A DNA stretch of 29,568 nucleotides from a virus (IMGVR_UViG_3300032213_002044:64770-94337), one strand, 5' to 3'; positions 2-4,154 are shown, counted from the first letter of the stretch. The notes: generated from the letters alone by a model not told the origin. Numbers and translations: made by a program.

Positions 2-442
2 AGAAGTGTAAATTTACCATTCAGAGCATTTTATCTTAATACTGAAACTCCACTTCTCCTAATCAATCCAATTATTACAAAATATTCAAATGAAGCATTT
101 CAATCTACTGAAACTTCTGAATTTGATACTAATGGGAAATTTAGAATTGTAATTAGAGCATATTCAATTGAAGTTCAGACCGATAATTTAGGGTTGGTAG
201 TATTCAAAGGTGATATGGAAAATGAAAGAGAGGAATTGAATGAATGTATTTTTGCTCAACAAATGATTGACCTTTTAGATGGTATTACTGTTGCTGATAA
301 AAATATAAATCAACCTATTAAGGCACCAGTTCAATATGAAAGAAACCAAATAGTTATGGCTAAAGACCCTAATGGTAATATTGAGCAAATAAAATATAAA
401 CATATATCAAAGTATATGGAAAAGGGTTACGTTTTAATGTAA
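2..442 (+). CDS. Peptide deformylase-fold protein, 5'-truncated, active site degenerate (probable pseudo-enzyme)
   Basis: Frame +2 is open from base 2, extending the track ORF at 194: RSVNLPFRAFYLNTETPLLLINPIITKYSNEAFQSTETSEFDTNGKFRIVIRAYSIEVQTDNLG...ECIFAQQMIDLLDGI. It is colinear with PDF landmarks (xQV..R, LINP, EGCLS position, VxRA..V.V, QHExDHLxG), but the EGCLS position reads ETSEF and QHExDHLxG reads QQMIDLLDG. Confidence 0.75.
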   Translation, partial: RSVNLPFRAFYLNTETPLLLINPIITKYSNEAFQSTETSEFDTNGKFRIVIRAYSIEVQTDNLGLVVFKGDMENEREELNECIFAQQMIDLLDGITVADKNINQPIKAPVQYERNQIVMAKDPNGNIEQIKYKHISKYMEKGYVLM

Positions 443-443
443 T

Positions 444-707
444 ATGAAAATGAATCAAAAAGAATTAAACGATGTTCTAACTAATAAAATAGTAGAACAA
501 AGTAATCAGTTGATATCAATACAAATCTTATTATATTCATTAGTAGATTTGGTTATAGAAAAAGAATTGATTTCAAAGGAAGATTTAGAGGAGATGATAG
601 ATAGTAAAAAGGCTATCGTTGAACAATGGATATCATCGGAATTAAAAACTCATACTAAAGATGATTCTTCGTTTATGATGCATTACGGCAAACCAGGAGA
701 AGCTTAA
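444..707 (+). CDS. Hypothetical protein (87 aa, helical)
   Basis: ORF packs 1 nt after the upstream stop; no recognisable motif. Confidence 0.6.
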   Translation: MKMNQKELNDVLTNKIVEQSNQLISIQILLYSLVDLVIEKELISKEDLEEMIDSKKAIVEQWISSELKTHTKDDSSFMMHYGKPGEA

Positions 708-973: not shown

Positions 974-1693
974 ATGCCGAGAAAACCAAAAACTCCTAAA
1001 AGTAAAATGTATTTCACTTTGGAGACGGAGGAAGCGATAATAGCTTACAATAAATCTGACAACCAAAGAGAAAAAAATACATTGTATGTAGAGAGAATTA
1101 AATACCCGTTTGAAAAAATAGCGGAAAACGTTTTGAATACTTATAAGTTTTCTTATTTTGATGATGGGCATGGAGATGTAAAAAGAGAAGTAGTATCTCA
1201 GATGATTTATAAAATCCACATGTTTCAGGAGGGTAAAGGTAAAGCATTTTCTTACTTTACTAGAATGGCATTGAACCATTTAATTCTACTAAATAATTCA
1301 AACTATAAAAGGTACAAGCAGAATGAATTGATGTCTGTAATGCCTGAAAGTTGGAATCCTTCAGAAGATTCATTAGCAATTGAAACTGATGCAACCCACA
1401 TTGAATTCAGAACACTTATGTTATCATATTGGGATGTAAAACTAAATGTGGTATTTGATAAGAAGAGAGATATACAAATTGCAGATGCTATATTAGAATT
1501 ATTTAGGAGAGTTGATTACATTGAGAATTTTAACAAAAAAAGTTTATATCTCTTAATAAGAGAAATGACAGGGCATAAAACACATTACATAACAAAGGTA
1601 ATTTCAACTATGAAAGTACATCAGGATAAAATCTTAGAAGAGTACTTAAACACAGGAGATATTACCGTAGAAGAAGATATTTTTTATAGATGA
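974..1693 (+). CDS. Phage RNA polymerase sigma factor, T4 gp55-like (probable late sigma)
   Basis: YF...TEEAIIAYN start, KIAENVLNTYKFSY, and KIHMFQEGKGKAFSYFTRMALNHLI resemble the sigma region 2 core of gp55 (HNFDE..KNPHAYITQACFNAF). Confidence 0.7.
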   Translation: MPRKPKTPKSKMYFTLETEEAIIAYNKSDNQREKNTLYVERIKYPFEKIAENVLNTYKFSYFDDGHGDVKREVVSQMIYKIHMFQEGKGKAFSYFTRMALNHLILLNNSNYKRYKQNELMSVMPESWNPSEDSLAIETDATHIEFRTLMLSYWDVKLNVVFDKKRDIQIADAILELFRRVDYIENFNKKSLYLLIREMTGHKTHYITKVISTMKVHQDKILEEYLNTGDITVEEDIFYR

Positions 1694-3375
1694 TACAAAT
1701 AGGAATAAGTTGTTATTATCATGATTCATCAGCCTGTTTAATTAAGGATGGTAAAGTGATATTAGCGGTAGAGGAGGAAAGATTTAGTGGGATAAAACAT
1801 GATAGTTCATTTCCAGAAAAATCAATTAAGTGGATTATTAAAGAATCCAGATTTAGTTTTGAAGATATTGAAGAGGTTTGTTTTTATGAGAAACCTTTAG
1901 TTAAAACACATAGAGTTGTAACAAATTGTTTGAAGAATTTCCAAATCGTAGATGCATTTAAATTTGGAGCAAAAGGAATCAAACAATATTTTAATTTGGT
2001 GAAGAAGCTAAAATGGATGTTTTCTAAAGCCCAAATTAAATTCACATCACATCACGATTCACACATTGGGTATTCATATTTAACTTCTCCATATAGAGAA
2101 GCGGCGATATTAAGTATTGATGGTGTTGGTGAATGGGATACGACAGTTTTAGCATATGGAAATGGAAATAGTTGGGAAACATTAGAGGCTACAAAATTTC
2201 CACATTCATTGGGAATGTTATATTCTACATTTACTGCGTTCTTAGGATTTAAACCTAATGAAGGAGAATATAAAGTAATGGGATTAGCACCATATGGTAA
2301 CCCAAAAACATTTTCACATAAATTCAGAGAAATTATTTATCCTTCTAAGAAAGGTGGATACACATTGAATATGAAAATGTTTCAATATGATAAAAGTGAC
2401 GAGGTGATGTTCACTTCAGAGTTATCAAAACACTTAGGAATCTTGCCTCGTTTACCGGAGGAGGAGATTACACAACAACATAAGGATTTAGCAGCGGCAG
2501 TACAATTCATTTATGAGATGTACTTTTTTCGTTTATTAAAAGATTTACATCGTAAAACAAAATGTGATAATTTAGTATTGGGAGGAGGATGCGCATACAA
2601 TGGAACTGCTAACGGAAAGATTTCAAAAAAGACAGGATTTAAAAATGTATGGATACCAAATGCACCATCTGATGCAGGTTCTTCAATTGGAGCATGTTTA
2701 ATATCATATTATAATAGTACACACCCACATAGAATTGATAATACGAATCCTTATTTGGGCCCAAAATATTTGAGTGATGTGGTTAAAAAAGAATTACAAA
2801 ATTACAATAAAAAATTAATATATAATAAACTATCCGATGATGAAATTATTTCAGTTGTTGCAAATGCAATATCAAATGGTAAAGTTGTGGCTTGGCTCGA
2901 AGGTAGATTGGAGTTTGGTGCTAGAGCCCTTGGGCATCGTTCTATTTTGGCTGACCCTACAAATGGGGAAATGAAAAGTAGAATAAATAAGATAGTAAAA
3001 AAGAGAGAAGGGTTTAGGCCATTCGCACCAATTGTAAAGTTGGAAGATGTTTCTACATATTTTGAATGGGATAAATCAGTTCCATATATGAATCAAATAG
3101 TAGGTGTTAAAAAAGAATATAGAGATATGTTACCTGCGATTACTCATGTTGATGGAACTGCTAGAATACAAACTTTAAATAGAGAAGATTGTGTTAGAAT
3201 ATATGATTTACTTACTGAATTAGAAAAACAAAACGAATACCCAATAGTTCTTAATACATCATTCAATATTAAAGACCAAACAATGATTAGAGACCCCAAA
3301 ACTGCAATAGATACATTTTTGGATGTTGAATTGGATATGTTAGTAATAGAGGATTATGTTATAACTAAGAAATGA
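1690..3375 (+). CDS. Carbamoyltransferase, NodU/CmcH/TobZ family
   Basis: Full motif set: HDSSACL, EEERFSGIKH, HHDSH, IDGVGE, EYKVMGLAPYG, GGCAYN, SDAGSSIGA, GRLEFGARALGHRSILADP, REGFRPFAP, HVDGTARIQT, LNTSFN. Confidence 0.95.
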   Translation: MIQIGISCYYHDSSACLIKDGKVILAVEEERFSGIKHDSSFPEKSIKWIIKESRFSFEDIEEVCFYEKPLVKTHRVVTNCLKNFQIVDAFKFGAKGIKQYFNLVKKLKWMFSKAQIKFTSHHDSHIGYSYLTSPYREAAILSIDGVGEWDTTVLAYGNGNSWETLEATKFPHSLGMLYSTFTAFLGFKPNEGEYKVMGLAPYGNPKTFSHKFREIIYPSKKGGYTLNMKMFQYDKSDEVMFTSELSKHLGILPRLPEEEITQQHKDLAAAVQFIYEMYFFRLLKDLHRKTKCDNLVLGGGCAYNGTANGKISKKTGFKNVWIPNAPSDAGSSIGACLISYYNSTHPHRIDNTNPYLGPKYLSDVVKKELQNYNKKLIYNKLSDDEIISVVANAISNGKVVAWLEGRLEFGARALGHRSILADPTNGEMKSRINKIVKKREGFRPFAPIVKLEDVSTYFEWDKSVPYMNQIVGVKKEYRDMLPAITHVDGTARIQTLNREDCVRIYDLLTELEKQNEYPIVLNTSFNIKDQTMIRDPKTAIDTFLDVELDMLVIEDYVITKK

Positions 3376-4154
3376 AACGAATAGTTGCATACGGAGATAG
3401 TTGGACAGTTGGAGAGGGATGTAATCGAGAAATTGAGGATACCCTCTCTAAACACGAAAAGATAATCTATCAAAAAGAAAATAGTTGGGTTAAACACTTA
3501 AGTGATAAATTGGGGTTACCTTATCAAAATAATGGGATAAGTGGCAACCCCAATAATGTTATATTCAATCAAATAGTAGATGATATAAAAAGTGGTGAAA
3601 CAACTAAGAATGATTTAGTAATCATAATGTGGAGTTCATCCTTAAGAGATTACTTACCATTTTTTCCAAAGGGGCCAAAAGGTGAGTGGTTAAGTTGGAG
3701 TACGAAACATCTTATGGAAACTCCTGATAGATTCTTTACTTCAACCCAAACACAAAATAGATATTATGATTTCTTTATGGAGGATTATAAGAAATTCTAT
3801 TTACTTAACCTATATAACGAAAATTATTATAGTATAGTTAACCAAAATTACATAGTATTTTTACAGGAATTTTTTAAACACTATAAGATATCTCACATCT
3901 TTATAGATGGTATAGAAGATATGTTTATGGGTATTCTACCTCACTATGATAAGACGGATTTGATAGATGGTAGAGTTTATTGGGAATTCAGAAAACAAAC
4001 CGCTAGGGGGTATTTAAATACGTTTAATAGGGTTGATTTATGGGAACATACAGAACGATGGGATACTCGTGGAACACAACACCCTAATTCGGAAGGATAC
4101 CAATTACTATCTGATGAATTCTATAAATTTATCGATACACAAAAAATTATTTAA
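3372..4154 (+). CDS. SGNH/GDSL hydrolase-like protein (paralog 1)
   Basis: Block I AYGDSWT, block II GISGNPN, non-canonical block III WSSSLRD, block V TQHPNSEGY. Confidence 0.7.
   Translation: MKRIVAYGDSWTVGEGCNREIEDTLSKHEKIIYQKENSWVKHLSDKLGLPYQNNGISGNPNNVIFNQIVDDIKSGETTKNDLVIIMWSSSLRDYLPFFPKGPKGEWLSWSTKHLMETPDRFFTSTQTQNRYYDFFMEDYKKFYLLNLYNENYYSIVNQNYIVFLQEFFKHYKISHIFIDGIEDMFMGILPHYDKTDLIDGRVYWEFRKQTARGYLNTFNRVDLWEHTERWDTRGTQHPNSEGYQLLSDEFYKFIDTQKII

Follow-up and report, generated by a model that had tools for sequence, protein, structure and literature searches.

Peptide deformylases (PDFs) normally act at the ribosome exit, and their genes rank with the most abundant of the auxiliary genes carried by aquatic phages. 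The glutamine of PDF motif 1 (GxGxAAxQ), which is Gln50, serves the transition state. Ribosome binding by Escherichia coli PDF requires the enzyme's own C-terminal helix, and the known viral PDFs have been described as having no C-terminal ribosome-binding region (PMC5591237; PMC12690207). Inactive PDF paralogues, designated type 3, are already known in bacteria. A further ribosome-binding element relevant here is the C-terminal metal-binding domain (MBD) of SecA, also called SEC-C. In E. coli, the MBD sediments together with 70S ribosomes and forms crosslinks with uL23; the ribosome contact has been proposed to run through conserved basic residues on the surface of the domain (PMC6620043). 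The zinc-type MBD is also established to bind SecB and phospholipids and to modulate the conformation of SecA (Jamshad et al., PMC6620043).

Here we describe, from an uncultured large phage of fresh water, a gene whose predicted product joins a PDF fold devoid of catalytic residues to a SecA-type C-terminal domain. Relative to the type 1B PDFs (E. coli Def; PF01327, TIGR00079), this protein, hereafter pseudo-PDF, has the same fold, the same structural residues and a catalytic domain of similar size, but it replaces all five of the Def residues Cys90, His132, His136, Glu133 and Gln50. In place of the C-terminal ribosome-binding helix of Def it has a predicted hairpin-plus-helix domain of SecA type. 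The type 3 PDFs also combine the PDF fold with motif substitutions and are reported to be weakly active or inactive. By description, however, they are cellular paralogues without a SecA-type tail that have lost only one or two ligands, whereas pseudo-PDF has lost all of them and nests in a clade of tail-bearing phage PDFs. The viral PDFs of Vibrio phage Vp16 (5mtc), of cyanophage S-SSM7 (3uwa) and of marine type 4 are likewise phage-encoded proteins of PDF fold; these are active enzymes in which the three motifs are intact and the C-terminus is shortened, whereas pseudo-PDF appears catalytically dead and carries a conserved C-terminal domain of 35 residues.

The tail of pseudo-PDF agrees with the SecA SEC-C/MBD (PF02810) and with its Cys-less variant in its C-terminal position, its R-N...K-Y/F-K signature and its similar length. 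It differs from PF02810 in being borne on a PDF fold rather than on SecA, in having no Cys or His ligands and in having no Pfam match. It is also more divergent than the tails of the presumably active phage PDFs, with YERNQ in place of GRND and GY in place of GW. In the literature that we searched, neither a phage pseudo-deformylase nor a PDF with a Cys-less SecA tail has been described.

The pseudo-PDF gene and its setting

The window analyzed is a stretch of 29,568 nt, bases 64770–94337 of a 94,337-nt viral record with an estimated completeness (CheckV) of about 46%. Window positions 2–442 are the 3' part of a longer ORF that is open at the 5' end of the window, as established by ORF listing and translation. 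The complete ORF occupies L001:1391–1942 in the parent record and encodes 183 amino acids; its ATG lies 110 nt upstream of window base 1. The part within the window comprises residues 38–183 and the stop codon, and was assigned to pseudo-PDF from the ORF listing and translation, the Pfam match to PF01327, and AlphaFold2 (AF2) modeling with Foldseek comparison. All features of the gene given below are on the plus strand. An initial annotation of this DNA had described the ORF as intact and tightly packed; it is intact but extends beyond the window.

A near-consensus σ70-type sequence, TTGAAA-17-TATAAT (11 of 12 positions), is found at L001:1348–1376, from 152 to 124 nt before the first base of the window and 15 nt upstream of the pseudo-PDF ATG. 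This is a consensus match only; if the promoter is used, the unmodified host polymerase would transcribe the gene, that is, early. A single TTTG-N20-TAnnTTTG site is also present upstream of the gene; such a site arose by chance in 48 of 200 shuffled sequences. Over the window as a whole, TAnnTTTG, the promoter motif of Bacteroidota type, occurs 53 times where 44.7 ± 7.2 are expected, which is no enrichment, and neither result bears on the host. Further upstream, at about L001:1100–1324, a short frame with repeated D-x-D-G-D-G-x-I-D motifs of the calcium-binding-loop type ends with a TAA at L001:1322–1324. It lies between a 322-amino acid membrane/coiled-coil protein and pseudo-PDF and was not called as an ORF of ≥50 amino acids.

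Downstream of pseudo-PDF, after gaps of 1 and 10 nt, are small ORFs of 87 and 84 amino acids (window 444–707 and 718–972), the second with an N-terminal hydrophobic segment. Neither had family matches; a related 287-kb contig has syntenic ORFs of 85 and 82 amino acids. Window 1690–3375 encodes a NodU/CmcH-type carbamoyltransferase (PF02543 and PF16861, E about 1e-63; phrog_1601), which shares an ATGA overlap with the gene of a weakly GDSL/SGNH-like protein of 260 amino acids (3372–4154). The order of these last two genes recurs in the 287-kb relative. That contig preserves the gene order pseudo-PDF, two small ORFs, a 239-amino acid ORF and carbamoyltransferase.

The window has a GC content of 31%, its leaders are A-rich, and a Shine-Dalgarno-like motif precedes only one of 25 gene starts (444 to 27556). 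Low GC and few Shine-Dalgarno motifs are compatible with a Bacteroidota-type, Shine-Dalgarno-independent host. A host of this type fits the data, which do not prove it. The spacing between RN and KYK in the pseudo-PDF tail is 16 residues, the same as in the SecA tails of Flavobacterium, which is a weak hint in the same direction.

DNA nearly identical to a 3.4-kb stretch was found in freshwater and lake metagenomes of several studies, and among the matches listed none was recorded as RNA. Four freshwater metatranscriptome libraries, drawn from four studies (X21, X22, X23 and X25), contain contigs of 150–350 nt that match L001:1330–1960 at about 88–97% identity. RNA libraries can contain DNA, and these fragments hint only weakly at transcription in nature of the gene or of close relatives.

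Pseudo-PDF has a peptide deformylase fold

Pseudo-PDF matches the Pfam family PF01327 at 26.0 bits (gathering score, 22.8) with an E-value of 7.6e-6. The match spans residues 8–137 of the protein and positions 18–149 of the 156 in the profile. An AF2 model of pseudo-PDF built on 21 homologues has a mean pLDDT of 90.5, and the secondary structure of its core agrees with the PDF fold. When the model was compared with the PDB using Foldseek, the top 50 matches listed were all peptide deformylases, with E-values from 2e-6 and TM-scores, normalized to the target, of 0.53–0.73. The phage PDF structures 5mtc and 3uwa are among the top matches. Together, the family match and the model indicate that the window gene product has the PDF fold, and the PF01327 score and Foldseek matches provide statistical backing for a fold that had initially been recognized by eye.

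The Pfam match, the AF2 secondary structure and the Foldseek comparison delimit a PDF-fold core of residues 1–141, of which residues 38–141 are encoded in the window (positions 2–313). The core is joined to the C-terminal domain by a linker, residues 142–148 (positions 314–334), which is the region of lowest model confidence. The pLDDT for the block of residues 141–150 is 68, and column entropy is higher in the linker than in the flanking segments.

Other searches at the level of sequence did not recognize the protein. A phmmer search of pseudo-PDF against the sequences of the PDB gave no matches even at an E-value of 10, PHROGs assigned it to no family, and no NCBIfam PDF model, the TIGR00079 equivalog model included, matched it at E ≤ 0.01. 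A tail-bearing relative with canonical motifs (P0076) scores 109.6 bits with TIGR00079, for which the cut-off is 103.95.

The catalytic residues are replaced

Pseudo-PDF and canonical relatives were aligned using MAFFT with the E. coli Def reference sequence (from NC_000913). Motif 1, GIGLAATQ in Def, reads LSAVCTRS in pseudo-PDF, and Gln50 becomes Ser39, a position occupied by Thr in most family members. The end of this degenerate motif, Arg38-Ser39 where PDFs carry T/P-Q50, is encoded at window positions 2–7. Motif 2, EGCLS, reads ETSEF (positions 110–124), and the place of the Cys90 ligand is taken by Ser76, a residue shared by 21/21 aligned family members. In motif 3 (positions 257–274) QHEMDH has become QQMIDL; neither of the two His ligands survives, nor does the catalytic Glu, with Gln124 in place of His132, Met125 in place of Glu133 and Leu128 in place of His136. 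For motifs 2 and 3 the assignments follow from the codons as well as the alignments. Specifically, the codons GAA ACT TCT GAA TTT at 110–124 and CAA CAA ATG ATT GAC CTT at 257–274, both in the frame of 2–442, give precisely the residues and coordinates of the initial annotation. That annotation had also held that every active-site residue was replaced, with Ser apparently substituted for the Gln of motif 1, and the Def alignment is in agreement.

Structural residues of Def have nevertheless been retained, namely the pair Glu88/Arg102, together with Gln131, Asp135 and Gly139. With Ser, Gln and Leu at the positions of the Cys and two His metal ligands, and Met at that of the catalytic Glu, pseudo-PDF, as judged from its residues, cannot be a canonical metal-dependent deformylase.

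The C-terminal domain is related to the SecA tail

Residues 149–183 (positions 335–439, YERNQ...KYK...GY) are, on the evidence of profile comparison, a Cys-less version of the SecA-terminal SEC-C/metal-binding domain. The assignment draws on hhalign, HMM scoring, genome scans, the AF2 model and dN/dS analysis. The tail contains no Cys. It is predicted to form a β-hairpin and a helix with a pLDDT of about 90 in the AF2 model, or 87 when the tail is modeled alone. Alignment of the tails of the pseudo-PDF family with SecA tails using hhalign gave a probability of 95.8% and an E-value of 7.2e-9 over 40 columns. An HMM of 68 SecA tails scores pseudo-PDF itself at 14.2 bits, and the best of 20,000 shuffled sequences at 11.3 bits. 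A score of 14.2 bits is modest; the homology of this one tail rests on the profiles and on intermediate family members.

A profile of six PDF tails was scanned over 185,579 species genomes and gave 188 confirmed matches. The best 80 of the 188 are all SecA C-terminal ends, from Flavobacterium, Crocinitomicaceae and other Flavobacteriales, many Patescibacteria, Puniceicoccaceae/Opitutales MAGs and a SAR86 MAG. With a profile of 18 PDF tails, that of the window gene included, exactly one ORF was matched in each of 41 out of 151 sampled Bacteroidota genomes. The matched ORFs are SecA-sized, at about 1,065–1,154 amino acids, with one of 876. The initial annotation had likened the tail to the C-terminus of Flavobacteriales SecA. 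Profile similarity and the link to Flavobacteriales are upheld, but the tail type is not restricted to Bacteroidota, occurring also in Patescibacteria, Opitutales/Puniceicoccaceae and SAR86.

MAFFT and BLAST pair the Cys-less tails with the E. coli SecA MBD through GRND...KYK, and the R-N...K-Y-K signature is common to zinc-type SecA tails, Cys-less SecA tails and phage PDF tails. Established family models do not capture the domain. PF02810 does not match the whole of pseudo-PDF at E ≤ 10, and a Pfam scan of 18 tails found neither SEC-C nor any other credible family. Foldseek comparison of the tail-only model with the PDB gave nothing at E ≤ 0.001, the domain being too small for the method. 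The Cys-less module of SecA itself (loci L005–L084 and L136–L143), with the consensus GRND.VTI..G.E.K..KYKKAEPFL..GW.I, is covered by no Pfam family, and a literature search for SecA/SEC-C in Bacteroidetes found no paper on it.

In pseudo-PDF the domain sits on a 183-amino acid protein of PDF fold and not on the SecA motor; in four phage records it is found on that gene only. The cellular PDFs of five genomes that encode a SecA with a Cys-less tail have ordinary helical C-termini and no such tail, suggesting that the phage module was not inherited from a host PDF.

Tail-bearing relatives include canonical and dead PDFs

An exhaustive phmmer search of pseudo-PDF against 1.84 billion representatives recovered 63 remote relatives, nearly all of which align up to the very C-terminus of the query; every one of the 63 either reaches that terminus or bears the tail. 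Their C-terminal pattern is (G)RN(D/E).V ... K(Y/F)K ... G(W/Y). The layout of the tail-bearing PDFs is a PDF core, a short linker and the SecA-type terminal module. The tail is not peculiar to the dead protein, for many tailed phage PDFs have canonical active sites. In a 79-sequence alignment, a sample biased towards relatives of the dead query, the C/H/E/H set is kept in 23 tail-bearing representatives and not in 48. The canonical tailed relatives are presumably active enzymes.

In a maximum-likelihood tree the clade of the window gene, with the pattern S-Q-M-L at the ligand positions, has support of 100/100. Its sister (98/89) is a second dead clade (among P0074–P0135) with a fixed pattern D-R-L-A/S, in which Asp replaces Cys, Arg and Ala/Ser replace the two His residues, and Leu replaces Glu. 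This pattern would represent a second, independent-looking way to a dead cleft. Both sister clades are nested among canonical tailed PDFs, and another all-dead clade (95/83) and a small pair are found elsewhere in the tree. Considering the well-supported branches, there are at least two changes of state at the catalytic residues, and parsimony suggests about four. On this tree, the tailed PDFs lost their catalytic residues at least twice.

All tail-bearing relatives stem from metagenome or viral collections and none from the sampled cellular genomes, and the ESM Atlas clusters of the family are 100% Viruses. The genomic context of remote relatives was available on two contigs, of which one is phage-like and the other is too short to tell. 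A canonical tailed member adjoins a gp25-like baseplate gene. Searching 50,697 GenBank phage records with tblastn gave no match and hence no cultured relative. A family profile also found no match in 401 sampled Bacteroidota genomes, although this empty result is uninformative. A 164-kb relative with an estimated completeness of 83% has a single PDF-like gene. Because the record containing the window is about 46% complete, a second, active PDF may be encoded elsewhere in that phage genome.

The gene is maintained by purifying selection

A word-index search returned 71 homologues of 47–95% identity and 120–189 amino acids. Nearly all have 182–189 amino acids, and three shorter ones appear truncated. 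All 36 coding sequences obtained from viral contigs are intact. Across 21 representatives, with identity down to 47%, 40 columns are invariant; these include Ser72, Glu74, Ser76, Asp79, Gln123, Gln124 and Asp127 in the former active site and Arg151, Asn152, Lys168, Lys170, Gly179 and Tyr180 in the tail.

Nei-Gojobori dN/dS is 0.09–0.13 for pairs with dS of 0.3–1.0, and has a median of 0.21 over 202 usable pairs. Taken separately, the core gives a dN/dS of 0.23 and the tail one of 0.11. Column entropy is 0.36 in the motif-3 helix, 0.43 in the DNLG segment, 0.81 in the motif-2 segment and 0.86 in the tail, compared with 1.09 overall. Within the core, conservation peaks in the first three of these segments. 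For pseudo-PDF as a whole, it is highest in the remodeled segments of the former active site and in the tail.

The pseudo-PDF gene is not decaying, and its family, which is found only in viruses, is under purifying selection. Relaxed selection among the homologues was looked for and was not seen, with dN/dS of about 0.1 in close pairs. Purifying selection and the 36 intact copies bear out the original reading of a retained pseudo-enzyme, and a decaying pseudogene is contradicted by the selection analysis.

Discussion

Our preferred reading, to which we assign a probability of about 0.6, is that the phage pseudo-deformylase serves as a non-enzymatic factor at the ribosome exit, docked there by its tail. 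Since the SecA MBD and the PDF C-terminus both bind ribosomes, holding the protein at the exit site would be the simplest role for the tail that is common to active and dead members. Docking is suggested by the R-N and K-Y-K residues that zinc-type SecA, Cys-less SecA and phage tails have in common. By analogy, the tail would attach pseudo-PDF to host ribosomes, at the polypeptide exit or close to it, or else to a host partner of the SecA tail; because the zinc-type MBD also binds SecB and lipids, that partner may not be the ribosome. At the exit, the dead cleft could bind or occlude nascent N-termini, or the protein could merely occupy the site. Co-translational processing or targeting would then be altered during infection, for example through competition with host PDF, MAP, SecA, SRP or trigger factor. 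The initial annotation had similarly suggested a binder of fMet peptides or of the ribosome exit, which might compete with host PDF or SecA.

The conserved cleft (Ser72, Glu74, Ser76, Glu77, Asp79, Gln123, Gln124 and Asp127) could equally mark new catalysis or ligand binding. Pseudo-PDF would in that case be a neo-functionalized enzyme or binder whose remodeled cleft carries out, for instance, metal-independent hydrolysis or the binding of other acyl-peptides, with the tail serving for localization only. The entropies of 0.36–0.81 that make the former active-site segments the most conserved in the core (1.09 overall), and the invariance of 4 of 11 and 8 of 16 columns in them, are what such a protein would display. 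The replacements Ser, Gln, Met and Leu are specific and fixed rather than random, and the sister dead clade has fixed another set (Asp, Arg, Leu and Ala/Ser), as if each clade had settled on a cleft of its own. Nevertheless, no known hydrolase motif has been formed, all four catalytic positions are now occupied by residues without a metal-chelating or general-base role (such as Leu and Met), and the unrelated replacements in different dead clades are better explained by a lost chemical constraint with a retained shape. Inactive PDF paralogues with motif substitutions also have a precedent in type 3 (PMC12690207, PMC5591237). We regard new chemistry as unlikely.

A SecA-tail mimic acting away from the ribosome seems no more probable. 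The destination of the protein, set by its tail, would here be the membrane, SecYEG or some other factor that the host SecA C-terminus binds; there it would compete with SecA and perturb host secretion, the PDF body being mainly a stable carrier. The homology of the tail to SecA C-termini, its position under the strongest purifying selection (dN/dS of 0.11), and the SecB and phospholipid binding and the modulation of SecA conformation known for the zinc-type MBD all accord with this. The same family, however, fuses the tail to canonical PDFs, the substrate of which is the ribosomal nascent chain; because of these, a ribosome-proximal role is the simplest common function, and the cleft in the core is too conserved for a mere carrier. 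It is highly improbable that the gene is a remnant of a phage PDF gene that is decaying or has no function. The disappearance of all catalytic residues and the failure of the PHROGs and NCBIfam models to recognize pseudo-PDF would be expected of a remnant, but 36 intact copies, a dN/dS of about 0.1, 40 invariant columns down to 47% identity, a length of 182–189 amino acids in nearly all homologues and synteny in the 287-kb relative would not.

Docking of a non-enzymatic factor at the ribosome exit can be extended to a more general, and decidedly more tentative, proposal. Large phages of Shine-Dalgarno-independent hosts, probably Bacteroidota, may have copied the SecA docking module of the host onto a PDF body, with catalysis abandoned in several lineages. 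The selected role in this form of molecular mimicry would be to occupy the landing site of SecA and PDF at the ribosome exit and so to re-route or block co-translational processing and secretion, and the type of phage tail would track the type of SecA tail in the host.

The published picture of viral PDFs as minimal, active and devoid of a ribosome-binding C-terminus would need revision in that one viral lineage bears what appears to be a SecA-derived terminal domain. Genes of this kind are sometimes labeled "peptide deformylase" in the source databases, which overstates their function. The Cys-less SecA C-terminal domain of Flavobacteriales and Patescibacteria would seem to be a portable module, and its partner is worth identifying. 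Active tailed, dead tailed and tail-less PDFs together make up a natural separation-of-function set for the docking of PDFs. Catalysis has been lost repeatedly and stably under purifying selection, which suggests that this phage "metabolic" gene acts non-enzymatically where the nascent chain emerges.
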